This document shows positions 1,454-24,304 of a stretch of DNA of 24,304 nt, in pieces. A model generated the notes under the pieces. That model saw only the letters and a list, made by a program, of their open reading frames with translations. It was not told where the DNA came from and searched no databases. The DNA is from a virus. The position numbers and the translations under genes are program-made. Each line of letters begins with the position of its first letter. Within the stretch, counting starts at the first letter, position 1. The stretch lies in IMG/VR virus record IMGVR_UViG_3300029911_001830; one strand, given 5' to 3'.

Positions 1454-1876
1454 ATGGCCGTCATTACCCAATCAAACAGTTCCAGTCAGCTTACACGGTA
1501 TTTCCTCGGCTATAGCACGCTGTATTCGAATATCACCGGCGTGCGTTCGCTCTATGACATTGATCTGATCAATATTGATCTGATGACATCATTCAATACA
1601 CGGGTGGGCGAGCGGGTTATGCGGCCCGACTACGGCTGCAAACTGTGGGATATGTTGTTTGAGCCGATGACGCCGATCCTGGCCGGTGCGATCATAGCCG
1701 AAGCCACCCGCATCTGCAACCTCGATGCCCGCGTGGTGCCCCAGACGATCACTCCGCTGCAAATCGACAAAGGGTTTCGCATCGAAGCCACGCTTTTGTA
1801 TCTGCCTTGGAACGTGATCGCCACATTCAGCGCCAATTTTGAACTCTCTGAAACCACCTATTTCAATCAGTCATAA
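1454..1876 (+). CDS. gp25/GPW-like baseplate wedge protein (TssE / P2 gpW / T4 gp25 family)
   Basis: 140 aa. The segment RSLYDIDLINIDLMTSFNTRVGERVMRPDYGCKLWDMLFEPMTPILAGAIIAEATRICNLDARV aligns with the T4 gp25 core RSIKNSLLGIITTRKGSRPFDPEFGCDLSDQLFENMTPLTADTVERNIESAVRNYEPRI. Both share P-D/E-F/Y-G-C-x-L-x-D-x-L-F-E-x-M-T-P, a conserved I/V-E run and an R-I/V pair. A GGTGGA RBS lies 6 nt before the ATG. The size is typical of the family. Confidence 0.8.
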   Translation: MAVITQSNSSSQLTRYFLGYSTLYSNITGVRSLYDIDLINIDLMTSFNTRVGERVMRPDYGCKLWDMLFEPMTPILAGAIIAEATRICNLDARVVPQTITPLQIDKGFRIEATLLYLPWNVIATFSANFELSETTYFNQS

Positions 1877-1887
1877 GGACCATTCCA

Positions 1888-4800
1888 GTGAGTTCGCGGC
1901 AAACAGACCTCCTCGCAGGAGACGAATGGACTTCGATCTATCAGGGTTTCACCCAGATCAATTTCAACGCCACCGACCCGGTAAGCATCAATCAAGCTCT
2001 TAGGAATTACATCCTCGTCAATTATCCCGAGAACTTCAATGATTGGATCATCTCCTCGGAATTTGTCGCGATAACCGATCTTCTTTCCTGGCTGGCGGGA
2101 ACATTGGCCTTCAAGACCGATATCGCGGCGCGTGAAAACTTCATCGACACCGCCGAATCGCGCGAAAGCATCCTGCGACTGGCGCGTTTCCTGTCATACA
2201 ATCCGAGCCGCTGTCAACCCGCCACTGGCGTGCTGAAACTCACCCAGGTAACGACCAGTGATGATGTGTACGACAGTCTTGGTAACGATCTCGCCAATCA
2301 GGCGGTGGTCTGGAATGACCCGAATAATATCAACTGGCAAGAACAATTCACCCTGGTCATGAACGCCGCGTTCATCCAAACCAATCCGTTCGGCCTGCCG
2401 TTAGCCTCCGGCACGGTGGCGAATGTGAGCACCGACCTGTACCGGATCAACGGTTTGGCTTCCGCCTCCAGCCTGAGTTTCAGCGCCACGGTCAGCGGCA
2501 CCGTGATGGCGTTCGAGATTTGCAATGGCGATTTCAGCGACAATGGCACTCTGTTCGAACGCGATCCCAATCCAGCCAATGCCCTGCAACTGTATTATTT
2601 GAACGACAGTAATGGTTATGCCAGCACGCGCACCGGTTTCTTCCTGCTGTTCAAACAAGGGAACACCGCCCAACAGGTGTTCCAGATCGCCACCCCGGTG
2701 CAGAACCAGTTGCTCGATCTGGGGGTAAGCAACGTCAATAATAACGATATCTGGGTGGATACCGTCGATGACAATGGCGCCGTGCAAATCGATTGGACCA
2801 AAGTCCCGGCGATCTTCAACAATAATATCACCTATAACAATCTCGCCAATACCGTACGCACAATCTACTCGGTGCTGACCCGCGATAACGATCAGGTCAC
2901 CCTCCGGTTCTCGGATGGCAGTTTCGGTCTCGCCCCGGTCGGCAATATTGCGGTGACCTACCGGGTGTCCAACGGTCTGACCTACCAAATCCAGCCGAGC
3001 GAAATCAGCAACATCACACTGCCGATCCAATATTTCAACACCGCCGGATCGCCCAAGCTGGTGTATCTGACGTTTTCGCTGCTGGAGACCGTGGCGAATG
3101 CCAGTGCAGCCGAAACGATCGAGCAAATCCGCCAGCGCGCCCCCCAGGTCTATGGTACGCAGAACCGGATGGTGTCCGGTCAGGACTACAATACCTTTCC
3201 GTTGTCCTCCAATCTGGCGGTCAAGATCAACGCCGTCAACCGAGTCTATAGTGGCCAATCGCGCTACATCGATCTGCATGATCCGACCGGCACCTATCAG
3301 GACCTGTCGATCTTCGGCGAGGATGGCCTGTTCTTCAGCGATCCGGCGAATACCTATTTCGAAGTGCCCACTACGCTCAATCGCACCTCATTACAAATCT
3401 TCAATGATTATATCGTGCCTGCGATCAATCAGTATACCACAGCGAATTTGATCCGCGACGTGCTGCTGCAGAATGTCCGGAACAACACCATCCGGGCGCC
3501 GCTCGATCAGGCCGGTGCGCCCTTTACCTGGGCGCCGTCCAGTGCCGCATTATTCAACACCAGCGGGACGTTCATCCATGATGCCAATCGGGGCCGCGTC
3601 GCCCTCCCCAGCCTGCCCGCTGCGGCCGGGTTGATCCAGGTCGGGGCGCTGTTACAGTTCAGTGTCAACAGCACCCTGGTTTGGGTTTCGGTGGTCAGCC
3701 TCGGCAATGCGATCGATACCCCCTTGGTGGTCAATACGGCAGGGCCAGTGACGCTGTCGCAAAGCCTGCCAAGCGGGGCGATCCTGCTCGCTGTGCTGCC
3801 CCAGGTGGTTACCACGGTGCCATCGACCCTGAACACCCCGAGCGGGTTGTCGGTCAATATGCTCTCGGGCTATCTCGATCTGCGGCTGTCCTTCTCGCTG
3901 CTCTACGATTATGCCACCGGGCTTTGGGTTCTGGGCACGGCGCAGAACAGTTTTGGCGCGCCTCAGGCGACGCTGGGCGGGCCGAATGGGACCACGGTGC
4001 TGATCGGGCTGGTTAACATTGTCGGCGGCGTGTGGCGGATCAATACGCGCGGCCTGCGCTATGTGTTCGAAAGCCTCGGCGCGGTCGAATGGTACGACAA
4101 TGGCGTGCGCACCCTGGCGCAGACCACGGGCGAAGCCACGGCCGATAATCTCAGCGTGCTGCGGATCAATCCCAATCTGAACGACCCGAGGGGCTATGCG
4201 TTGGGAATCGATTACGGCCTCACCATCGATCGGCTCTGGACCTATCCGGATGGCACGGCCGAACCCCGGCGCACCACGGTCTTGTTTGCTGATAGTAACG
4301 GTGATGGCGTGCCGGATCGGCCCGACACGTTTTACAACCTCATCTCCGGCAGCCCGGCGACAAACTATTTGTTCTGGAGCAACACAGCAGTGCCTCCGTA
4401 TGACCAACCATATTACACAGTGAACGGGTATGACAATGATGGTTTGCTGCAAGCGGATACCCCGCCGCTCGGCACGGTCGGCTTTCAGGTCGTCTCTTCG
4501 GTCACCCCATTAGCGAATGAAACCTTTTGGGTGTATCAACTCACCGGCTGGACGCAGGACACCACGAGCAGCTATCGCTTCGCCATCGGACGCGGTCCGA
4601 ATGTCGCGGCCAATTGGATCAGCGCCTCGGCCAGCGCCACGCCCAGTGGCGATGCGTTATTCTTTCATTGGCAACATTACGCCCCGAGTGATCATCGGAT
4701 CGATCCGGCCAGCACCAATATCGTCGATATTTTTTGCCTGACCTACTCGTATGACAGTGCGGTGCGGCAATGGATCACAGCGGGCGCGATTGCCGCCCAG

Positions 4801-5274: not shown

Positions 5275-8200
5275 ATGACCAAACGGCGTTTCATCTCCCT
5301 GCTGCCCGGCTGCAACCAAACCGCCGACCTGACCGCCTTCTTCGGCGCCACGGTCGATGCCTTATTCCAGCCAGGAATTTCCGACAGTATCAATGGTTAC
5401 ATCGGTCACCAAATCAGCGGGGCCGACCCGACCACCGATTTCTATCTCGCCGAACCGGATCAGACTCGCGCGTTCTACCAGTTGGAACCCGGCATGGTGA
5501 GCCTCAATTCCACCAGCAATACGATTCGCAATGCCCTGACCTATCCGGATTTCATTTCTTATCTCGATGACACCGGGGCGATCGTCAGCAATCAGCAGCG
5601 GCTGTTCGACACCGCATTGTATAGCTGGGCGCCGCCCATCAATATCGACGCCTGGATGAACTATCGGCAATACTATTGGTTTGGCGATGGCGCCGAGGAT
5701 ATGCCGGTCCTGGCGATTAACGTTCCAATCACGTATTATACCGGCGACGGGGTTACCACGCTGTTCGCCCTGCCACCATCCATGACCTCGATCACCCTCG
5801 CGCAGGAAACCCCGACCGGTTATGTTGCGGGTGAAACAATGCCAACCACCCTCAGTCCGGATGGCAGCAGTCTGATCTTCGCAGATGCGCCTGCTCTTGG
5901 CACAGTGGTCATGGTGACGCGCATTGCCGACTTTATCGGCACCGTGACCAACATGACGAGCATCGATGTGACCGGACTCACCTCAAATGATACTACCCCC
6001 TCACGCGCGCCCAGTCCGCCGGTCACCCAGCTTAGCTCGGGGATGCTGCTGCGTATCTACGATACCTTGCATCTGACCGAAGGCTGGGGTGGTCCGGCCT
6101 GGGATACCACGCCCTGGGACGCAGCGGCCTTCGATCAGTATATCATCGATGGCGTCGGTCAGAGCATCCGGTTCACCCCGTATGGCACGCTGATCCGGGG
6201 TCTCGCGGCACAATACGTCACCATTGATCGCTCATCGCAGCAAACCAACGCATGGTCGAGCCGCAATCTGTGGGTGCATCGCGCCACCTTCCTGTGGGCC
6301 GGAGTGGATTTCGTCAGCCGTCAAGCCTTGCGCCCAATCATCGAATTCGTCCGCGATCTGGTGTTATGGCAATGCTCTGCCTCACTCTACAAACCGACCC
6401 CTCAGCAAGGCAGCACCCTCACCTTCGCGGGAACCTTGCCGGTCGCCACCACCGTCAAGGGGTTTGATGTCGAGATCGGTGTCACGAGCGAAACGTTAAC
6501 CACGCCGATTCCGGTTGTTACAGTCATCACCACAGCATCCACTGCGGTCACCCTGGCGACACCCTTGCCTGCGCTACTGGGACCGTTCGCGGCAGGCACT
6601 TCCATGACCTTCCAGCAGATTTGGTCGGAGGATGTGGCGCCATTGTTCATGCTGTATGATCTCAGCACCACCCCCGCGCCCTTGAACGATCCGGTTCGTT
6701 ATCCCAACAGCACGTTTTATGGCGATCACATTTTCGGCTACGCGCTGGGCACCGGGGCGGCCGATCCGGTCATTTTGCAACCCTTGGTGTTTGACAGCAA
6801 TGGTATCATTGTCTACGACAATGCGATCGCCACGACACAATATCTGGCCGGATCGACGCCGATCATCGGGCTTTATCGTTACGCCACGCATAGTAGCGCG
6901 GGTGATCCGCAATATTACTCGCCGTGGCACGATGCGGGCATCACCAGCCAGTCGATCGCGATCAATGGCTTTTGGGATATTCCGGTCAATTTGCAAGCCA
7001 ATCCCTTGGCGCAAGAGGTTAGCCGGGTGTCGAACAGCGATGTCCAGCAGCATTTTGCCGACTTGATCAGCCAGCAAAGCAATTTCAGCGGCACGGCCAG
7101 TGCCAGCAACAACTATCGCGACAGTCCGCGCGATCTGTCTCTCGGCACCCAGGTTCTCCAGCATCGGGCGACCCTGCTCAAGGCCATGCTGCTGGCGTCG
7201 TCCAGCCAATTCGATCTGACCCTGGCACTGCGCTACGCCGATCAGGAATATAACAGATTCCGTAACAAATTCGCCCGCAAGCTGGTTGATCTATGCAATC
7301 GTGGTGTGCTGCGAGTGGATATCGATCCTGCCAGTACTTGGGTGGCGACGACCCTGGCGGCCTTGAAGATTGGCCATACCAATGCGATGCCGTTTTGGCT
7401 CAGCACGATGGCGGGCGGCCAATGGTTCATTCCGCCCACGGCCTCGGCCCTGGGTATCCAACCGGCTGTGGTGCCTGCGCTGCTGGTCGATGCCTTGTAT
7501 AATCCGCCGATTACTTTCATCCAGGGGCATGACGGCAGTCGCACACCCGCCAATAATGACTGGCGCGATGCGATCATCCTGGCGCTGGAACAACTAATCT
7601 ACACCAATCTCGATCCTGCGTTGCAGACCGAAGCGCGGCCGGTGTTTGACATTCAGCAATGGTGTGGCGGGCATTTCTACGCCCCCGCGAACGGCTATAG
7701 CCACGCCGAGGTGAGCAGCCTGCTGGCGCCATTCTTCGAAATCTGGGCGCAGAACAACGGGCTGGATTATCGCAATGCGCTGGGCTACGATCCGAGCAAT
7801 CCTTTCACCTGGAACTATCGCGGCAGCCTCGACCTCTTTGGCTTGCCGATGGCTGGAAGCTGGCGCGCGGTCTATCACGATTATTACGGCACCGATGCGC
7901 CACATCTGCGTCCCTGGGAAATGCTGGGCTTTCAAACTCAGCCGTCCTGGTGGGTGACGCAGTATGGCGCGCCGCCTTACACCCCCAGCAATCGGGTCTG
8001 GATCGACGCCACGAACGGCTATATCGCGGGTGGCGTGCGCGCGGGCTATGATGCGGTCTATTCTCGGCCCGGTCTGCTGGCGGTCTTGCCGGTCGATGCG
8101 ACGGGCCATCTGCGCGATCCCACCCAAATCGGTCTGGTCACGGTCACTTCGGGGCTCGTCGCGCTCTCCAGCCAGCCCTGGCAAGCAGGCGATTTCGGTC

Positions 8201-11200
8201 CGGTCGAGATGCTTTGGCGGACCACCCCGTCGTTTCAATATGCCCTGGCCTGTGTCAGTTTTTTGATGAAGCCCGCCCGCTTCACCGATACCTGCTGGAC
8301 GACCCTCACGCGCGGCCTGATCGCTGATCAATGGGTCGATCTGAACACTTTGTTGCGTTCCACTGACTCAACCAATCTGCTGCATGGCGAGAGCGATGCG
8401 GCAGGCCAACCTGTGATGGTCACTGGCGTCTCGCAATGGCTCGCCGACTATCTGGTTTCGCAGGGCGGCACGAGCAGTCAATTGGGCGATGCGGTGCGCG
8501 GCTTGGATGTGCGCCTGCTGCATCAGATGGCGGGGTTCGTATCGAGCAACACGGTGCAGGCGGTGTGCGATAGTTTCGGCTTGCTACCTGCCGAGAATGT
8601 GCAGACAATTCTCTATACATCGCCACCCAACGATACCGAGGTCTATAGCGGCGTGATCGTCGAGTGGACGGGCGCCGGGTGGCGGGTGATTGGCTATGAC
8701 GGGCGCACCCCTTCCTTCACCATCATCCCGCCTGATCCGGCCTCGGTCAAAGGCGTGATCAGTCTCGCCAGCGTCGCGGAACCGAAGATCAGCCCCTGGC
8801 AAGCCAGCACGTGGTATGCGCTGAATACTTACTGCAATTCGCAGGGTTCGGTGTATCAGTGCCAACGCTCGCACACCAGCGGCCCGATCTTCGAACTGAG
8901 TTTCTGGACCCCGCGTCCCGATCTCAGTCCATTCGCGATCCCGGCGCCACGCATCGTCACCTATGCGACCGGTTTCAAGGCGCTCCAACAAGTCGCCTAT
9001 GGCACGATATTCAACACCTATCAGGCGGTCGGCGATTTTCTGCTCGGCTATGAACGTTACTTGGTATCACGGGGGTGGATTTTCAGCGGCACCGATCCGC
9101 AATCCGGCGCGATCCTGAACTGGTCGATGGCGGCATTGGAATTCCTGTCCTGGACGCAGGTCAAATGGCAGCCCGGCAACTTCATCGCCCTGTCGCCCGG
9201 ACAGCGGCAAATCCAATTCAGCACGCTCACCGGGACGATCAATAACGTGGAGGACAACAGCACGGGGTTCTTCGGGCTGTGCGATCGCGTCGGCGCCCCG
9301 ATCAGCCAAAACAACGTCCTGCTCAGCCGTCTGGATGGCGATCTGACCATCACCGCGCTGAATGCCGATATCTTCCTGGCCCGGCTCTATCTCAGCACCA
9401 TCGAACATTTGTTAGTTTTTGATAACGTAACCATCTTTGACGATGCCATCTATCTGCCGTTGTTCAATCTCCGCCAGCCGCGTCTGCAATTGATCTGCAA
9501 TCGGGCGCAGCAATGGAGCGGACGGCTGGACGCACCCGGCTTCGTCATCACCGGCAACACCTTGGCCTCTAGCTTCGAGAAAGCCGCCAATGATGTGCGC
9601 TACATGTTTGACATCGAACTGGCAGATGTGGCCGACCTGCGGGACTACGCACGTCACGTGATCGGCTATGCCGAGCGTAATTACCTGGATAACCTCCTGT
9701 TGGCCGAAGTCGAGCAGTTTGAGTTCTATCAAGGAATGATCCAGCAGAAGGGTGCCCCCGGCGTGTTCGAGAAACTGATGCGCAGCACCCGCGCATCCGG
9801 CAACAGCACGCTATCGTTCCTCGAAGAATGGGGCTTTCAGGTCGGCCAATACGGGGCTCCGGCCGATGGGTTCGTGACGTTCCAACTGGCGCAGACCGAT
9901 ACCCGTGACGATCCGCAGTTTGTCAGTTTTCAGCCGCTCGCCAATGCGCCGCTGAACTGGATCATGCTCGCGCCGGGCGATCCGCGCTGGTATGACGTGC
10001 CGCCGAACCCGAGCCAATTTTTCACCATGCAGAGCGGCTTCGTCCCTGCCGCCTTGCCGATTGCCGGGCCGGTGCGGCTAACCGATGTCGCCAATACAGT
10101 GTTCGCCTGGGCCGACGTGCCGACGGTGTTCAGCCAAGAATTGCAGGCAGGTACTGCTACCTTGCCCGCCGGAGAACGCCTCTGGGTGTATGAACGAGCC
10201 GATCTAACCTTTACGGTGCTGGAAAGCTTTAACACAGCGGCGCTCCCAAATGCGCTGCTCAGCGTGCTCGCACCCGTCATCGGCAGCACCGATCGAACCG
10301 CGACCCAGACCACGCGACTGACCCTCAGCCAACCACTCAATCTGCAACAAAGTGACATTGGTAGCTACATCGTCATTGATGCGCCCAGTCTGTCCTATCC
10401 GGACCTGCATGGTGTCGCAACCTTGATCGCCATCAACTTCGCCAATAATACCATCGATATCGATTCGGTTAGCACACAGGGCTACGTCTATCTGCCCACC
10501 GACACCGCGCCTATGGTGCGCATTCTGCGCGAAATGCGGTTTCCTGATCTGGCGACGCTGATGGTCGCGGGCTACGATTGGATGATCGGCGACCTCGCCT
10601 GGATCGACGGTTCAGCCACGATGCCCTGGACGGTGCAGCAATGGGATGGCGGCGAATGGTCTCTCGCCCGCCAGCAGCCCCTGCGCAATAATCCGACGAC
10701 GATCAGCGAGACGCTGATCTATGCAGCCGGGACGCAGATCACGGGTATGCTCATGAGCAGCAACACGCCAGTGGTGAACGCCATCGACGTGATCGATCCG
10801 GTTGCTGGCTTAATTGCAGGCCGCGCCCGCAAGGAACTCGATTATCTCACCCCGTTCGATCCGGCCCGCTATAACGCCGGAGCGACATCTGCTGCGCTCA
10901 ACCCGTGGGGGCCGAATGAACGCGGCCGGGTGTGGTGGAATATCGCCACCGTCAAGTTTATCGATCCCTCCACCGATGTCTTAGGCGCAAGTAACGATCG
11001 CGATGTGGTCGAGTTGCACTATCGCATCCAGCAATGGACCCGTGTGGCGCCACTTAGCAGCGTCGATGTGTATGAATGGATCGAAAGCCTCGTCGATCCG
11101 ACGACCTATATCGCCCAGGCCATAACCGATTCGTCCTTGGGACGGGTGTATCTCACGGACGCGCCCTCCTGGGTCGAGCGGGTGGTGTATGATCCGACCC

Positions 11201-19279: not shown

Positions 19280-19283
19280 CCGG

Positions 19284-19311
19284 TTGACCTGCGCCGGACC
19301 ATTGGTATAAC
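19284..19311 (+). promoter_or_regulatory. sigma70-like promoter candidate (TTGACC, 16 nt, TATAAC) followed by an AT-rich leader-like stretch
   Basis: TTGACC at 19284-19289 and TATAAC at 19306-19311. The AT-rich CTCTTTGATATTAAAACCTGT (19319-19339) follows and leads directly into the first degenerate repeat unit at 19341. It would transcribe the mini-array in the orientation in which the units end ...GGCTACGAAAAC. Confidence 0.3.
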
Positions 19312-19340
19312 AGCGCCTGCTCTTTGATATTAAAACCTGT

Positions 19341-19800
19341 ATGGCTATGAAAAGCAGCAGGCGCAGCCTTGGGATAATGAATCAGTCATCCTCGATCGGG
19401 ATGGCTACGAAAAGACGCATTCGCATTTAGGTGGCTACGAAAACGCCGACAGCTACAAAAATCTGCTGAGCCGTCACCCCGTTGGTATCCGGGATGCAGT
19501 CATTCCTGTTCGAATGGCTACGAAAACTGGCTTGCGTAGCGGCTACACGGGCTGATGGGATGCAGCCACTCCTGTGGCTACGAAAAGGAAGGGGAGTTGC
19601 CTACGACCATTCCGGGAAGTATTTGCACGGCATGATAGCAAAGGCGCTATTACAGTCATCCATCTTGTTTGGCTGGCTACGGAAACGGAAGACCTCAAAT
19701 GGGGGACGATCGGATGCAGCCATCCGATGGATGGCTACTAAAATCATGAGAGTCCGCGCACGACGAAGCTCCAGTCACCCGGTATGGTGGATGGCTACGA
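19341..19800 (+). repeat. degenerate CRISPR-like mini-array in plus orientation, about 10 decayed units
   Basis: Units such as GGATGCAGTCATTCCTGTTCGAATGGCTACGAAAAC, GATGCAGCCACTCCTGTGGCTACGAAAAG, GATGCAGCCATCCGATGGATGGCTACTAAAAT and CAGTCACCCGGTATGGTGGATGGCTACGACAAAC match the reverse complement of the downstream CRISPR repeat (GGTGCAGTCACCCTATCGTTGGGTGGCTACGAAAAC). Spacing is irregular at 30-70 nt. Confidence 0.55.
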
Positions 19801-19841
19801 CAAACTTTAACATCTTGTGCCGCCAAAGACTAAATACTTGC

Positions 19842-20096
19842 ATGACCCTGCGAGAACTTTTGCAAATCACCGAGCGAAAACATTCATTGCACTATCACGC
19901 GCGACTCAATCCGGAGAACATGTGGTTCGACATCGTGGACATGAACGATCACGTGGTGGCGATCGATGTGTCGCCCAATCCCAAGCGGGCGCGAGAGATT
20001 GCGGCGACCTTCTATCCAGGGCAGATCATCGAGAGCGCCCGCCAGTCCCAAAGGAATCGTAGTTCTCGTAGCCATCAAGAGGATGACTGTTCATAG
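19842..20096 (+). CDS. small hypothetical protein (84 aa) between the two inverted repeat blocks
   Basis: ATG at 19842 gives MTLRELLQITERKHSLHYHARLNPENMWFDIVDMNDHVVAIDVSPNPKRAREIAATFYPGQIIESARQSQ... This is the only protein-like part of the 204-aa track ORF 19482..20096, whose 5' part is a read-through of the repeats. No clear RBS. The 3' end runs into a repeat-like TCTCGTAGCC...GGATGACTG element. Confidence 0.3.
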   Translation: MTLRELLQITERKHSLHYHARLNPENMWFDIVDMNDHVVAIDVSPNPKRAREIAATFYPGQIIESARQSQRNRSSRSHQEDDCS

Positions 20097-20125
20097 CCGG
20101 GGATCGACGCCTGGGGACGTCCGCT

Positions 20126-20340
20126 CTTTTCGTAGCCTTTTCGTAGCCGCCACAATGTGTGACTGGCGTTGACGCCAAGGCCAAGGCCGACCTAGAGCTT
20201 TTACCGTAGCCTTTTCGTAGCCGCCATCCTCAGCATAACCTTTTCGTAGCCGCCTCTGACTGACTGAATCGTAGCTATTTGTCCCTCAGCATAACCTTTT
20301 CGTAGCCATTTCGGGTGACACCTACTGTTTTCGTCGCCCT
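20126..20340. repeat. degenerate CRISPR-like repeat block in the opposite orientation to 19341-19800
   Basis: Repeated TTTTCGTAGCC(G/A)CC units include a tandem pair CTTTTCGTAGCCTTTTCGTAGCC (20125-20147) and two identical 24-mers CCTCAGCATAACCTTTTCGTAGCC at 20228-20251 and 20284-20307. It ends with GGGTGACACC...GTTTTCGTCGCCC. Confidence 0.5.
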
Positions 20341-20516
20341 TCGTGATCGTCCTGTGATCGATTCTCGTGACCGTGCGCAGCCTCGGTTGCGATCATGGCC
20401 TGCAACTCGTGTCAGATCGCACACCAGAGTGTATGCTGGCGATCGGGTTGGGTCAACCGTTTGGTTTGATCGAACTTCATGTTAAATAATGAAAACACTG
20501 AGGATGCCAACAAACG

Positions 20517-21275
20517 ATGAGTATTCGCGCCTGGATGCGGCTGGTGGAGGCGATCATGTCCCCCGCAGCCCCACCGCCCGTCACCGAGACGGCCGCCTTC
20601 CAGCAGTGGTTTGCGGGCAGTAAGGTGGTCGATAAGGCGGGGAAGCCGCTCCGCTGCTATCACGGCACCCAATCGGACTTTCATACGTTTTCCAATGAGG
20701 ATGCGCCGGGGCGGGGCGGTCTGTTGGCGTTCTTTTCGGTGAAGCCGCAATTTGCCAGTTCCTATGCCTCGGACGAGCGCTCGCCTGAGGTGCGGGCGGG
20801 CGCCCAGGTGATGCCGGTCTATCTGCGCATCGTCAATCCATTCGATTACCGCAAAGATTATCACATGGCCGGGAGTTTCTATGATGAGACCGGCGGCATC
20901 CAGGATCGTTTTGAGAGCAACCGCATCCTCATGGGCCTCGGTTGGAAGATCGATAACATTGACGATGTCTCGACGCCGCTGCTGACGGAAAAGCAGTTTA
21001 CCAGGGCACTCCGCAAGGGCAGTTGGGATGCCTTGGAGGCGCCGGACTTCGTGGAGTATATCCATGATGCTGGTTATGACGGGATCGTGTTGATGGAAAA
21101 CCGCAGCCTCAACTTCGCCATCTTCGAGGCTAATCAGGTTAAGAGCGCGATTGGCAATCGGGGGACCTTCGATCCCGAGTCCGATCACATTGGTGAATCC
21201 GCACCGGCGCGCGATACCGGGTGGCGGGCGTTTCACCGTATTTCACGGCTCGGCCGCAAACACCCTGAGGTCTAG
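20517..21275 (+). CDS. hypothetical protein, possibly ADP-ribosyltransferase-fold (YHGT motif)
   Basis: 252 aa, GAGGA 13 nt upstream, ordinary composition. LRCYHGTQSDFHTF (YHGT at 20658-20669) resembles the H-G-S/T NAD-binding motif of H-Y-E-class ARTs (PARP, Tpt1/KptA). Possible Tyr and Glu follow in FASSYA and NFAIFEANQV. The opposite-strand ORF 20412..21236 is Arg-rich and antisense-like. Confidence 0.6.
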   Translation: MSIRAWMRLVEAIMSPAAPPPVTETAAFQQWFAGSKVVDKAGKPLRCYHGTQSDFHTFSNEDAPGRGGLLAFFSVKPQFASSYASDERSPEVRAGAQVMPVYLRIVNPFDYRKDYHMAGSFYDETGGIQDRFESNRILMGLGWKIDNIDDVSTPLLTEKQFTRALRKGSWDALEAPDFVEYIHDAGYDGIVLMENRSLNFAIFEANQVKSAIGNRGTFDPESDHIGESAPARDTGWRAFHRISRLGRKHPEV

Positions 21276-21526
21276 TATTTTAGGGAAAACGTGCCATTGC
21301 CGTGATCGATTAGCTGGTCGGTGCGATGCAAGGAGAACGTGCCGTCGCAATGATCCAGAAGCTGGATGTCGCCGGTTTCGAGGTAATACACCACCGAGTC
21401 GTGCGCCTGTTCGCGCGTGACGCCAGCAGGGATTTTATCGTAGTCGAGACAGCTTTCGATGATCGCATCGAGGCATTTGCGAGCGCCTTCGGGAAGTTCT
21501 TTGTACGGGACTGTAGGTTTTGTCAT
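21272..21526 (-). CDS. small hypothetical protein, convergent with the ART-like gene. Its start is uncertain (ATG 21526; alternatives ATG 21619, TTG 21655)
   Basis: Encodes MTKPTVPYKELPEGARKCLDAIIESCLDYDKIPAGVTREQAHDSVVYYLETGDIQLLDHCDGTFSLHRTDQLIDHGNGTFSLKY with an internal duplicated motif DH-x-(D/N)GTFSL. Its stop (CTA, 21272-21274) overlaps the plus-strand TAG (21273-21275) of the ART-like gene within CTAG. The opposite-strand ORF 21326..21751 looks non-coding. Confidence 0.45.
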   Translation of the reverse strand: MTKPTVPYKELPEGARKCLDAIIESCLDYDKIPAGVTREQAHDSVVYYLETGDIQLLDHCDGTFSLHRTDQLIDHGNGTFSLKY

Positions 21527-21582
21527 GCCGGTGTGGATAGCATTGCCCGACCCCTGGTGTCCAGATGGAGTATCTGTCTTGC

Positions 21583-21909
21583 TCAAGATAGTATCCGCAA
21601 TAACAGCAGGACGAACCATGTGATGCCCAAAGCTGATACGAACATGTTCAGCCAAAACGCCACCCGCATCAGCCAGTGGAATCTCTGGTTGAAACTGCGT
21701 GACGTCTCGATGATATCATGCATGAGTTCAATGCGATCGCGGATGGCGTGATCAAAGGCCATCAACACGATCAAGTGGTGCAGGTCTTGCAGCACGATCT
21801 CGATCGCAAGGGTCATGGCCAGAAACGGCGATGCGCCGCCTTGTTGCAGTTCGGCGAATAGCGCTGCAATCACGGGACGCACATCGGGTTCGGGCTGTTG
21901 CATCACCAT
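21583..21909 (-). CDS. small hypothetical protein with a hydrophobic C-terminal helix
   Basis: MVMQQPEPDVRPVIAALFAELQQGG...FWLNMFVSALGITWFVLLLLRILS. A strong GGAGGG RBS lies 9 nt upstream of the ATG (minus strand). It is the first gene of a two-gene minus-strand unit that reads toward the ART-like gene. Confidence 0.55.
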   Translation of the reverse strand: MVMQQPEPDVRPVIAALFAELQQGGASPFLAMTLAIEIVLQDLHHLIVLMAFDHAIRDRIELMHDIIETSRSFNQRFHWLMRVAFWLNMFVSALGITWFVLLLLRILS

Positions 21910-21995
21910 GGTCTACAACCCTCCAATACGAATTGGAAGCGTCGGATTTGCGCTTTTCGATCGCGTGGTTGTTGTTGGCTATATTTGCAGATGTC

Positions 21996-22029
21996 ACCTC
22001 AAGCGGCCTTGGCTGCGTCCGCTTGAGGT
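21996..22029. other. perfect inverted repeat (11-bp stem ACCTCAAGCGG/CCGCTTGAGGT, 12-nt loop)
   Basis: Read directly from the sequence. It lies between the start of the minus-strand gene at 21909 and the first degenerate repeat unit at 22046. A loosely T-rich tract (TGCGATCGTGCTGTTTGTTTT) follows on the plus strand. It is not a textbook intrinsic terminator on either strand. Confidence 0.25.
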
Positions 22030-22045
22030 TGCGATCGTGCTGTTT

Positions 22046-23768
22046 GTTTTCGTAGCCGCCCAAGGGTGACTGAAACCAGCTTGCCGGTCCTCTTGCTGTC
22101 GGTCTTGTGGTCGTATCCATTTCCATTTTCATAGCCATGCCAACGGGATGACTGCACTTCTGTGTAGTTACTCGTGAGTGACGATTCTGTTTTCGTAGCC
22201 ATCCCATGGCTCTTGAAAGGACGTCCGCAGTCGTGCCCTTGTCGTAGCCGCCGGATGGTAGGGTGAGTGAGCCGATGATGCCCGTCTGGCCGTGATGTAC
22301 GGGGTTGTCGTAGCCATCCTAGCCACCCAACGATAGGGTGACTGCGCCTCCTGCGCTCAGCCCTCGGATACATTTTTCGTAGCCACCCGAAGGGTGACTG
22401 AAACTGAGGCATTCGGGGTTCGCAAGGCTCACACGTTTTTCGTAGCCTTTTCGTAGCTTTTTGTAGCCTTCAATCCCCGCCCATTTCTGTATGTTGTCGT
22501 AGCCACTCTCTCTCATAGCCGACGAACGACATAGCGCGATCGTCGCTCTCATACAATGCATCAAATAAGCTCTCGCGCCGTGCACTCTCATTTTCGTAGC
22601 CACATGGCCGGGTGACTGAACCGCCATGCATTCGCCATGCAAGTTTTTCGTAGCCACCCAGGTATACCCCCAACGGGCGCCAGTTGAATTTTTCGTAGCC
22701 ACCGAAACATCGGGTGACTGGAACTCAGCGGCTAGCTCGCCGACCTGGGATTGATATTTTCGTAGCCACCCACTTTCCATAGCTACCCAAAAAAGGTGAC
22801 TTTAAACCCGCCCGCCACACAAGATTTTCGTAGCCACCCAAGAGTGACTGAACCCGAACCCAACTGGATCAGTGGTCTTTTAGTAGCCCACGCAAATTTT
22901 CGTAGCCGCCCGAATGCCGGACCGTACCCATGCCACCCTGTGTGTTGTTGTAGCGACCCACCAATCATCGATTTCCGTTTTCGTAGCCGTCCCGAGTGGG
23001 GTGACTGAATCTCGGAGCCACCAAGCCAGACGCAACATTCTTTTTGTAGCCGTCCGAGTGGCGGAGCGACTGAAGCCTTGGCCAGCATGTCGATCATCAG
23101 CTTCTGTTTTCTGTAGCCACTCGATGTAGACTGTCGAGGGCTGTCGGGCAAGTAGTTTTGTAACACCAAAGGTTGTAGGGTCTCCGAAACGCGTGTTTTC
23201 GTAGCCATCCAAAGGCGCTGTTCCACCTCAGGCATGGGTGTTTTCGTAGCCATCCAGCCATCCAAAGACAGGATGACTGAGCCAATCCGTCACATTTTTC
23301 GTAGCCCCTGCGAGGGCTGTCGGAGCGGTGTTTTCGTAGCCTCGAACGCAACAAGTCGTTGCCATTTCTTGTCGTAGCCGTCCAAAAGGCAGGATGACTG
23401 TGGGGGAGTGGTCTGCACGGCGAATTCAGCGATGTTTTCGTAGCCACCCAACGGCACGGCATGACCGAAGCTCCGATCGAAACTTTTTTCGTAGCCATAG
23501 GGTGACTGAATCGTCCCGAACTAAATCGGTTTTTGGAGCGGCCTACGCCGACGGCACGATCCGATGGCAGTTCTCGTAGCCTTTTTTCGTAGCTATAGGG
23601 TGACTGATCGTAGCGGCCGGGCAGCGACTCCAAAGTTTTCGTAGCCACCCAAGGCTGGGAAACCGGCTGAGCCCTTTTCTTTTTGTAGCCGCGTCCGGCG
23701 ACTGAGGCTGAATAAAAACTGCCGCTCCATCGCTGCACCAGCAGGTGTTGCGGCCTGCACAGGCTTTC
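22046..23768. repeat. extended zone of decayed CRISPR repeat units, many of a shorter variant GTTTTCGTAGCCACCCAAGGGTGACTGAAAC
   Basis: About 30 units beginning (G)TTTTCGTAGCC at irregular 45-100-nt spacing. Examples are 22046, 22374, 22590, 22690, 22825, 22976, 23488 and 23569, which end GGGTGACTGAA(A/C)C and lack the CGATA segment. Units at 22128 and 22303 are closer to the intact repeat. There are tandem partial copies at 22436-22468. A 13-mer CGAGGGCTGTCGG recurs in two different inter-repeat segments (about 23130 and 23306). Confidence 0.7.
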
Positions 23769-24304
23769 GTTTTCGTAGCCACCCAACGATAGGGTGACTG
23801 CACCCAGGATGATGGTGGCGTACTGGCCAAAGGTGTTTTCGTAGCCACCCAACGACGGGGTGACTGCACCGACCTGCTCTTGGCAGGTTATCGCAATTTT
23901 TCGTAGCCACCCAACGATAGGGTGACTGCACCCGCGCTCACCCGGATCGTCGATGGCTTTTTGTTTTCCGTAGCCACTTCCTCAATCCAGTTTTCGTAGC
24001 CACCCAACGATAGGGTGACTGCACCGAGATCGAGGTGAAGTGGTTGCCTGTCTGTTTTCGTAGCCACCCAACGATAGGGTGACTGCACCCAAAACCAATG
24101 CTGAGGATAATCCGTCCCAGTTTTCGTAGCCACCCAACGATAGGGTGACTGCACCCATCCTGTCCAGCGGCGCTTGAACGCGCCAGTTTTCGTAGCCACC
24201 CAACGATAGGAATACAACGCTCAGTTCGTCAGTTTTCGTAGCCACCCAACGATAGGGTGACTGCACCACCGGCACTCCAGGAGAACGAACAGTACTAGTT
24301 TTCG
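23769..24304. CRISPR. CRISPR array with 36-nt repeat GTTTTCGTAGCCACCCAACGATAGGGTGACTGCACC. It continues past the window end
   Basis: Repeats at 23769-23804, 23835-23870, 23897-23932 (begins TTTTTC), 23990-24025, 24054-24089, 24120-24155, 24186-24210 (truncated to 25 nt), 24232-24267 and 24298-24304 (cut by the window end). A degenerate copy lies at 23963-23989. Spacers are unique and 26-30 nt long. The reverse complement ends ...GGCTACGAAAAC, like typical repeat 3' handles. The conserved end is at high coordinates, so the leader is probably beyond 24304 and transcription probably runs on the minus strand. Confidence 0.9.

Follow-up and report, generated by a model that had tools for sequence, protein, structure and literature searches.

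Analysis of a 24,304-nt stretch of viral DNA (IMG/VR record IMGVR_UViG_3300029911_001830; hereafter the window, meaning the whole stretch) revealed, from position 19343 onward, the old and rearranged tail of a CRISPR array, which is carried by a jumbo phage in three pieces and has no CRISPR-associated (cas) genes nearby; of this description we are nearly certain. The units of this tail have decayed unevenly, and what they have kept is a short core made up of the base of the repeat hairpin and the handle that follows it. The reading that we favour, with a confidence in the whole statement that stops just short of even, is that this is a rearranged array tail whose kept handle units act as decoys in the manner of the RNA anti-CRISPRs (Racrs) of other phages.

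The 11-nt motif GGCTACGAAAA, with at most one mismatch, was found 54 times in the window, compared with 0.27 ± 0.51 times (maximum 2) in dinucleotide-preserving shuffles, and all of the matches were confined to 19343–24304, with eight on the plus strand (19343–19803), seven on the minus strand (20063–20338) and the remainder on the minus strand from 22047 to the window end. A covariance model trained on eleven minus-strand units, taken from the main zone only, matched the plus strand at 19379–19414, 19493–19527, 19559–19587, 19649–19686, 19713–19744 and 19768–19804 (E from 1e-9 to 1.5e-5) and the minus strand of the mid block at 20062–20093, 20137–20169 and 20240–20270; outside the repeat zones, it found nothing with E<0.1 in the other ~19 kb of the window. 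The original prediction, which had described decayed repeats on the plus strand at 19341–19800 and had proposed comparing the units with shuffled sequence, was thus borne out by both the motif and the covariance-model matches, with a count far above that of the shuffles. In addition, all independent contigs recovered, whether from JGI, ENA or Logan assemblies, have the identical repeat layout (99.8–99.97% identity), and misassembly is therefore ruled out. The layout comprises three degenerate zones and a clean array.

19343–19804, plus strand: inverted block of 8–9 units, each a hairpin followed by GGCTACGAAAA; six are full and two or three handle-only.
20062–20340, minus strand: mid block of 7–9 units, oriented as the main array, many of them handle-only and in tandem, reshaped by local duplications.
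22046–23765, minus strand: main degenerate zone of ~30 handle-bearing units with an irregular spacing of 11–97 nt.
23766–24304, minus strand: trailer-side half of the clean array, with a period of 66 nt, a 36-nt repeat and ~30-nt spacers (Tandem Repeats Finder; 50–52 bits in the covariance model).

The proposal that the zones are CRISPR-derived, with one in opposite orientation, is supported for all three of them. Blocks of the opposite orientation were indeed present both in the mid block and from 22046 onward, with the correction that the minus-strand mid block starts at 20062 and not at 20126; likewise, units derived from a 36-nt repeat occur in all three zones, and the clean consensus of that repeat is to be corrected to GGTGCAGTCACCCTATCGTTGGGTGGCTACGAAAAC, read on the minus strand. 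The units of the inverted block mostly carry an ATCC/GGAT stem variant, and the main zone holds three stem variants (ACCC/GGGT, ATCC/GGAT and AGCCCT/AGGGCT). Many unit-to-unit distances in the main zone are 63–69 nt, close to the ancestral 66 nt, and others are 11–55 nt. Local duplications are present at several places in the tail, above all in the mid block, where they were detected between 20123–20152 and 20197–20226 (90% identity) and between 20228–20251 and 20284–20307 (100%), and bare handles stand in tandem at several places, for example at 20127/20138 and 22437–22468. A near-intact repeat was also seen deep in the degenerate zone (22304–22348), far from the clean units, with the exact loop TATCGTT and an 8-nt duplication of a stem arm.

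Contigs that reach past the window showed that the clean array extends ~360 nt beyond the window end to its leader (contig L001, 13782–14400) and that it holds, on the minus strand, 13 full copies of the 36-nt GGTGCAGTCACCCTATCGTTGGGTGGCTACGAAAAC with unique spacers of ~30 nt, along with two truncated copies. Near-identical direct repeats and uniform unique spacers, as in a CRISPR array, were found from 23766 to the leader and not in the degenerate zones, with their spacing of 11–97 nt. Beyond the array lies a 262-nt non-coding stretch, followed by small unannotated genes, and this stretch bears a promoter-like site on the minus strand (TTGATC-17-TAAAAT). As it adjoins the clean and variable end, we take this stretch to be the array leader and the array to be read on the minus strand. 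The same end thus combines a leader-like stretch with spacer turnover between contigs: the spacers are polymorphic at the window equivalent of 24299–24430 (L001 13776–13905; L047; L008/L054) in a population that is otherwise 99.9% identical, with one contig lacking the repeat-spacer unit that carries GAGGAACAGCAGATCAGATGGCGGGAGTAT and another having TTCAACGCTCGTCCATGAGATGGTGCATCT in that position. This loss of a unit and replacement of a spacer between contigs indicate an array that is active now or was so recently. Two degenerate units upstream of the leader (L001 14295–14390, window equivalent ~24816–24890), in which a hairpin AGCCC..GGGCT is followed by ACGAAG or ACGAGAAA, mean that old units flank the clean array and its leader on both sides; it looks as if the young part of the array had been inserted or recombined into an older one.

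The clean repeat forms a hairpin with an 8-bp stem (AGTCACCC/GGGTGGCT, −12.9 kcal/mol), behind which stand exactly 8 nt, ACGAAAAC. Repeats of class 1 systems processed by Cas6 have a hairpin followed by 8 nt, which gives the 8-nt 5′ handle, and this is the part bound by Cas proteins; Cas13a repeats have a similar geometry, with a hairpin followed by ACUAAAAC. The geometry of the present repeat would fit both the Cas6-processed class 1 type and the Cas13a type, and a subtype is not assignable from geometry alone. The larger open reading frames (ORFs) of the window, of the preceding 10 kb (~29 kb on the baseplate side) and of ~11 kb beyond the leader included no cas family, in a search that covers the locus only, in a phage genome of at least 259 kb. 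A 677-aa protein encoded ~7.5 kb beyond the leader was considered as a compact effector and rejected: it had no Pfam match, its sole PDB match was to a chain annotated AaBgIC, with no Cas protein matched, and NCBIfam gave nothing. Searches with the 13 spacers yielded no self-matches, one chance-level match in the phage collection (E=0.04, a Desulfofustis phage) and nothing in three scans of IMG/VR, with no cross-targeting with the other unit-bearing phages.

Repeat-derived units of the same orientation lie on both sides of a three-gene segment, which fits a single array split by ~1.7 kb, and both the inversion and the cassette insertion that had been suggested for this locus are plausible. No spacer is common to the inverted block and any other zone, nor is anything longer than a repeat unit shared; the inverted block is therefore not a recent inverted duplication, an origin that was considered and ruled out. 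The units change abruptly leftward of 23765, in a sharp step from clean to degenerate, and within the main degenerate zone their similarity to the consensus shows no gradient with distance from the leader (Spearman 0.04), while units next to each other resemble one another more than randomly paired ones do (P=0.004). The idea that the first repeat evolves slowly and leaves a ‘fossil record’ was rejected as the sole cause of the pattern, given the lack of a gradient with leader distance and the fact that old handles would then decay like loops. As all contigs of the phage are near-clonal and share the layout, they carry no comparative information on the inversion or the insertion. Similarly, no repeat units were found at this site in relatives whose vault-like protein is 74, 71, 60 or 37% identical; the contigs at 74, 71 and 60% and the LR7565xx genomes, which lack units and have different neighbours, were set aside as a basis for comparison, since no genome shows the state before inversion or insertion.

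The strongest signal in the tail is the unevenness of its decay. Exact consensus 7-mers of the handle region (GGCTACG to ACGAAAA) occur in 20–26 copies in the main degenerate zone, compared with 8–9 copies for the 5′ stem arm (CAGTCAC to GTCACCC), 1–2 for the 5′ end and a single copy for the loop. Among ~45 degenerate units, the handle positions are 84–100% identical, figures that are inflated by anchoring on the handle, and the last handle base is only 34% identical; the 8 nt just upstream of the handle reach 18–64% and the 5′ end, a part not included in the hairpin, 15–65%. What the ~45 tail units retain is thus the 3′ stem arm together with seven of the eight following bases (GGCT-ACGAAAA); decay has reached the loop, the 5′ end and the geometry of the spacers. 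When the anchoring was reversed, a handle was found within 45 nt in 20 of the 20 units with an exact CAGTCA, and an exact CAGTCA was present in 22 of the 45 handle-anchored units; the asymmetry is therefore not due to the way in which the units were found. Moreover, the 1720 nt of the main zone divided by 66 give 26 expected units, approximately the number of distinct handle-bearing units, which indicates that few handles have been lost. The retention pattern is, in our interpretation, explained by selection on GGCT-ACGAAAA and not by neutral decay, by duplication or by a mutation-prone hairpin, with a neutral relic as the main rival, weighed below.

The same handle was found in other viral contigs. 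A scan of IMG/VR for two handles 40–70 nt apart added two viral contigs, both from the JGI sample series to which the window phage belongs; in a later viral scan, which looked for handles in close succession, everything apart from contigs L063 and L064 proved to be lysine-rich coding repeats. The first contig, L060 (IMGVR_UViG_3300029907_000025), encodes Hsp20, a ClpX-like protein and a cell-wall hydrolase and packs seven heterogeneous units that share this handle into 300 nt (2114–2414), flanked by the end of a gene on one side and a terminator-like hairpin (2427–2450) on the other; it may be another jumbo phage or another part of the window phage. The second, L064 (IMGVR_UViG_3300045773_000040, with a near-twin, IMGVR_UViG_3300045771_000034), encodes a large serine recombinase (1476–3167) and is therefore regarded as a temperate phage distinct from the jumbo phage of the window. 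At 3253–3297 of L064, a solitary unit of a hairpin and GGCTACGAAAAC (3266–3297) directly follows a 13-nt box (GTTCTTTGACA / CCGTTCTTTGACA), an arrangement also present in L063, and a second copy of the box, 830 nt further on, precedes a cluster (4089–4449) that opens with three bare handles separated by 5 nt and continues with three identical repeats, whose spacers are 36–37 nt long, and then with degenerate units. The bare tandem handles (4124–4168), being only 5 nt apart, leave no room for spacers. A unit with no repeat within 100 bp was found only at 3266–3297 of L064, and the window units stand 11–97 nt apart beside an array. The hairpin of L064 is AGCCCT/AGGGCT, the variant that also occurs in the window unit at 23296 and in the two degenerate units upstream of the window leader; outside the units, these contigs have no nucleotide similarity to the window phage. 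Apart from these clusters, a single unit CAGCCCTACGGGCTACGAAAAT lies on the minus strand of L064 (3762–3737), immediately upstream of AGAGGGGG, a ribosome-binding site, and of the ATG of a 69-aa ORF (3724–3512) that had no family match; this layout resembles that of published racr-acr operons.

In Cas6-processed and Cas13a-type repeats, a hairpin with the 8 nt behind it is what Cas proteins bind, and we therefore favour the view that the tail has been kept for Cas recognition. In the decoy reading, transcripts of the tail would still be bound or cut by a host Cas6 or effector and would yield RNAs that resemble CRISPR RNAs (crRNAs) but carry useless guides; such RNAs would compete with the crRNAs of the host and so dilute or sequester its CRISPR complexes. 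The tail would then be a multi-copy relative of the Racrs, and the leader-side units may meanwhile serve as real guides. The tail units are repeat-like by the covariance model, intergenic by codon scores and without a cas link in the cas search, they lie on a mobile element, and their mimicry of the phage's own clean repeat is seen with the covariance model. A wider version of this reading, which we consider distinctly unlikely, would make the tail a ‘poly-Racr’, in which ~45 hairpin-plus-handle units with at least three stem variants might soak up Cas6 or effector subunits of one or several host loci, phages might have converged on or exchanged the 12-nt handle, and the ADP-ribosyltransferase (ART) gene and small genes described below might form an anti-defence island with it. 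In this wider version, the tail would be transcribed together with the true guides or separately from them, and the handle would occur as solitary units, mini-clusters or long tails in different phages of one habitat. If the tail is functional, the decayed ends of phage arrays could be a hidden reservoir of anti-CRISPR RNAs, and the count of such decoys could be measured as a trait in the phage–host contest.

Several results weigh against a decoy function. By eye, some units seem to have compensatory stems (ATCC/GGAT, ATTC/GAAT, ACCG/CGGT and AGCCAT/ATGGCT), and hairpins of at least 6 bp form in 18 units, compared with 3.7 when the upstream sequence is shuffled; however, when upstream halves were swapped between units, a control that preserves the ancestral stem base common to them, the expectation rose to 13.4 ± 2.0 (P=0.025), and other measures of hairpin compensation were not significant in the swap test. 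In the alignment, which was fitted with the model, 89.5% of cells are paired versus 87.5% in shuffles, the stem variation amounts essentially to one pair, C-G (14) or U-A (7), which defines two subfamilies, and a good hairpin is missing in roughly half of all units. A hairpin under strong compensatory evolution was therefore rejected, the signal having shrunk to P=0.025 under permutation and to one variable pair; the data suggest a few stem subfamilies and, weakly at most, ongoing compensation. Nor has a partner in a host come to light: the repeat had no Rfam CRISPR-DR match at E up to 1, a similar repeat was absent from the plasmid and phage collections searched, a handle-doublet scan for a host array in one genome per GTDB species gave 25 loci that were all unrelated tandem or coding repeats, and the repeat pattern matched only the window phage itself in the metagenome collection. 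The phage population is, moreover, near-clonal and gives no reading of constraint. Finally, Racrs are solitary by definition, and the pipeline used to search for them drops units with partial repeats within 100 bp (Camara-Wilpert et al., 2023; PMC10651486); they have so far been sought only as solitary repeats, clusters adjacent to arrays having been filtered out by design.

A neutral relic is a serious rival, if on balance an unlikely one. In this explanation, the tail would be the dead remains of an array, produced by earlier activity, inversion, slippage and the insertion of genes, and the conservation of the handle would reflect a mutational or detection bias. Decay of repeats at the trailer end is normal in CRISPR arrays, and jumbo phages tolerate non-coding DNA; furthermore, many unit distances are still near the ancestral 66 nt, local duplications can multiply handle-bearing fragments, compensation within units is barely above the permutation control, and neither spacer targets nor a host array were found in the collections searched. 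However, neutral decay should strike all 36 positions alike, which is difficult to reconcile with 84–100% identity in the handle versus 18–64% just upstream and 15–65% at the 5′ end, and because the 5′ end lies outside the hairpin, a mutation-prone hairpin is no explanation. Duplications would have copied flanks along with the handle, the agreement between handles and expected units leaves only a small detection bias, at least one unrelated phage carries this handle, both in a solitary unit and in mini-clusters, and the boundary between clean and degenerate repeats is a sharp step rather than a gradient. If the tail is nevertheless a relic, it would be a clear record of how a phage array ages, through inversion, splitting by genes, local duplication and a sharp boundary between old and new.

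It is improbable that the tail works by antisense pairing, with opposite-strand copies (GUUUUCGUAGCC) pairing with the repeat part of host crRNA or pre-crRNA, or with the inverted and mid blocks pairing as double-stranded RNA around the small ORF between them, thereby silencing host CRISPR RNAs or regulating the enclosed genes. Pairing alone would explain why ~12 nt are conserved and hairpins are dispensable, the plus strand runs with the upstream structural genes and the ART gene, and an RNA-interference-like role of phage repeat-spacer RNAs has been suggested (PMC7162821). The predicted fold of the plus-strand RNA of 19343–20338 does pair sense handles of the inverted block with antisense handles of the mid block (minimum free energy −363 kcal/mol, z=−3.1 in 20 shuffles), but such a fold is an automatic consequence of inverted repeats, the z of −3 is modest for 20 shuffles, and the promoter-like box of L064 lies upstream of units in the sense direction. 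Highly improbable, in our view, is a role of the 11-mer at the DNA level, as an iteron-like site where a DNA-binding protein of the phage or host would act in partition, packaging or regulation, with its likeness to the repeat end due to ancestry only. The 11-mer is far better kept than the rest, is found in both orientations around genes, and occurs as bare tandem copies without hairpins at the window and L064 sites given above (20127/20138, 22437–22468 and 4124–4168); yet it is the exact 3′ end of a genuine CRISPR repeat at the same locus, most copies keep the stem base, with the hairpin closing at GGCT, and no DNA-binding gene is linked to it except for a low-confidence, possibly winged-helix model. 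A type II-like array, read on the plus strand with GTTTTCGTAGCC first, in which the conserved part would pair with a trans-activating CRISPR RNA (tracrRNA) and the inverted block would represent anti-repeats, is scarcely probable at all. Repeats of 36 nt, spacers of 30 nt and a repeat start of GTTTT are typical of type II arrays, and the plus strand of the inverted block is complementary to the repeat start in that reading. Such repeats, however, lack the strong 8-bp hairpin (−12.9 kcal/mol) with exactly 8 nt behind it, plus-strand reading would require the clean polymorphic end and the leader-like stretch to be at the opposite end, eight tandem anti-repeats with neither nexus nor terminator are unlike any tracrRNA, the L064 box precedes units in the hairpin-then-handle direction, and there is neither an Rfam tracrRNA match nor a cas9 at the locus.

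The object as a whole belongs to known kinds, namely phage-borne arrays and repeat mimics in phages. Like an ordinary array with a decayed trailer end, it has clean repeats on the leader side and decay away from the leader; unlike ordinary trailer decay, which generally involves one to a few repeats, it has ~45 degenerate units, a sharp step and a spared handle. Work by Medvedeva and co-workers in 2019 reportedly described virus-borne mini-CRISPR arrays in inter-virus conflicts, which lack cas genes and have one or two spacers matching related viruses. The L064 cluster, with three identical repeats and 36–37-nt spacers, is similar to these mini-arrays as a viral array that lacks cas genes and would borrow host Cas proteins; the window array, unlike them, has 13 spacers, none of which had a match beyond chance level in the sequences searched. 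Phage arrays lacking cas genes are known from huge phages, may use host Cas proteins and are compact (median, six repeats; Al-Shayeb et al., 2020; PMC7162821). The present array resembles these in being a genuine repeat-spacer array on a jumbo phage, with no nearby cas gene and a presumed reliance on host Cas, and the vault-like protein of the phage is 37% identical to those of 462–735 kb genomes of that study; it differs in having 13 clean and ~45 degenerate units over ~5.5 kb, interrupted by genes and partly inverted. Racrs are repeat mimics in phages, often located just after a promoter and beside small anti-defence genes; Cas6f binds and cleaves Racr RNA, which serves as the nucleus of aberrant complexes (Camara-Wilpert et al., 2023; PMC10651486). 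The window units share with them a hairpin and handle, a location in phage intergenic DNA, the lack of a cas link, a candidate promoter upstream and small unannotated genes alongside; they differ in being many, clustered, heterogeneous and contiguous with a working-looking array. A closer match to published solitary repeat units and Racrs (PMC10651486) is the solitary unit of L064, which stands after a promoter-like box. CreA and crlRNAs, which are crRNA-like regulatory RNAs, consist of degenerate repeat-like units that flank short pseudo-spacers and are used by Cas effectors in a role other than cleavage (bioRxiv 10.1101/2024.01.05.574328; bioRxiv 10.1101/2024.12.27.630466). They are degenerate and repeat-like as the window units are, and differ from these in being host-encoded, beside cas operons, single, and provided with a pseudo-spacer that matches a nearby promoter; a match of that kind did not come to light in the window, where no search was aimed at it. 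In comparison with the literature on phage arrays and repeat mimics, the scale of the tail (~45 units), the conservation of the handle only, and a handle common to co-occurring phage contigs are unusual and find no counterpart in the sources consulted.

The phage that carries the array was characterized by its structural genes and its contigs. The window encodes a gp25-like baseplate protein and a 1128-aa baseplate wedge protein that is 35–40% identical to those of Agrobacterium phage Atu_ph07, Sinorhizobium phage Phosso and 121Q-like jumbo phages. At the end of the structural gene block, an 840-aa protein (16757–19279) carries the shoulder domain of the major vault protein; within the phage collection, relatives of it occur only in ‘huge phages’ of 462 kb and 735 kb (37% identical), it has more than 4600 homologues at E<1e-20, many of them on contigs of 100–600 kb, and it looks like a conserved jumbo-phage protein. 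The DNA of the window recurs in more than 20 contigs (JGI, ENA and Logan) at 99.8–99.97% identity, one of which is 259 kb long and ends inside the array. On the gp25 match, the baseplate wedge, the 259-kb contig and the vault-like protein, the source of the window is assigned to a jumbo myovirus. An early suggestion of a cyanobacterial origin, based on GCGATCGC-like motifs, was rejected, as the octamer occurs only 5 times, GATC is enriched generally and the proteins indicate a jumbo phage. GATC occurs 262 times in the window versus 95 expected (~2.8-fold over), and CGATCG 40 times; the other unit-bearing viral contigs (L044, L059, L060, L063 and L064) have a similar GATC richness, and two other handle-bearing viral contigs are similar to the window phage in both this richness and their guanine-plus-cytosine content (55–58%), which fits a common host or methylation system. 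Directly after the baseplate wedge gene, a single ORF of 3549 aa (5275–15924) was observed that had no Pfam or other family match.

Genes and promoter-like sites around the zones are as follows.

19284–19311, plus strand: promoter-like site TTGACC-16-TATAAC, 32 nt upstream of the first plus-strand unit; a weak candidate.
19842–20096, plus strand: small ORF of 84 aa (ORF list; called as a gene in all contigs).
20428–20456, minus strand: promoter-like site TTGACC-17-TACACT, upstream and in the sense of the mid block (consensus scan); a candidate only.
20517–21275, plus strand: predicted ART-PolyVal ADP-ribosyltransferase gene, 252 aa (Pfam PF18760).
21272–21526, minus strand: 84-aa gene (ORF list, gene calls), with an alternative upstream start that gives 115 aa and an end at 21619.
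21583–21909, minus strand: 108-aa gene with a hydrophobic C-terminus, directly downstream of the array (ORF list, gene calls).

The sigma70-like promoter and leader-like stretch that had been proposed at the head of the inverted block (19284–19339) proved weak. The site at 19284–19311 has 10 of 12 consensus positions, and it went unreported by the consensus scan because the final T of its −10 element is replaced by C; promoter-like sites are not enriched in the region (5 versus 3.0 ± 1.5 in shuffles), and the sequence ahead of the inverted block does not resemble the true leader, so that homology between the two was dismissed. Independent transcription of the inverted block is possible and so far unsupported, and read-through from the plus-strand structural genes ending at 19279 is an alternative possibility for it. 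The box CGGTTGACC, which lies upstream and in the sense of the mid block, resembles the 19284–19311 site, with a match that is within chance.

The small ORF between the inverted and mid blocks had no Pfam, PHROG or NCBIfam match and no homologue; its last 11 codons are the reverse complement of the repeat unit at 20062–20093, and its codon-usage score is weakly positive (0.09, versus 0.31 ± 0.08 for windows of true genes). ORFs that run through the repeat zones have negative codon-usage scores and score as non-coding. Three genes were indeed found between the zones at 20517–21909, as predicted, with the correction that they lie on different strands, one plus and two minus, and are not co-directional. 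The first was assigned, from its sequence only, by a full-length match to PF18760 (E=7e-24; 85.6 bits against a cut-off of 31.2; model positions 1–140 of 140); it has a codon score of 0.26, and an identical protein is present in 40 collection blocks. ART-PolyVal domains are known from proteins with which phages and conjugative elements counter host functions. The 84-aa gene at 21272–21526 is convergent with it, with a 4-nt overlap of the ends (21272–21275), and has a gene-like codon score (0.15); its protein was modelled with low confidence as two helices and a beta hairpin (predicted local distance difference test score, pLDDT, 67), and neither this model nor that of the small ORF (pLDDT 65–67) gave a fold match below E=1. 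The 108-aa gene has GGAGG 8 nt before its ATG and likewise a gene-like codon score (0.16), and no family match or relatives were detected for it or for the 84-aa gene. Because both minus-strand genes are co-directional with the array, transcription that runs on past the array could extend into them.

An 11-bp inverted repeat (ACCTCAAGCGG / CCGCTTGAGGT, 21996–22029) lies in the gap that separates the last array unit from the 108-aa gene, with a T-rich run after it on the plus strand; read by eye, it may be a terminator or an attenuator. Only five small variants were found at 19280–23765 among the phage contigs. The window itself carries two 3-nt insertions (21943–21945 and 21968–21970) that are absent from most other contigs, in the non-coding DNA between the array tail and the 108-aa gene.

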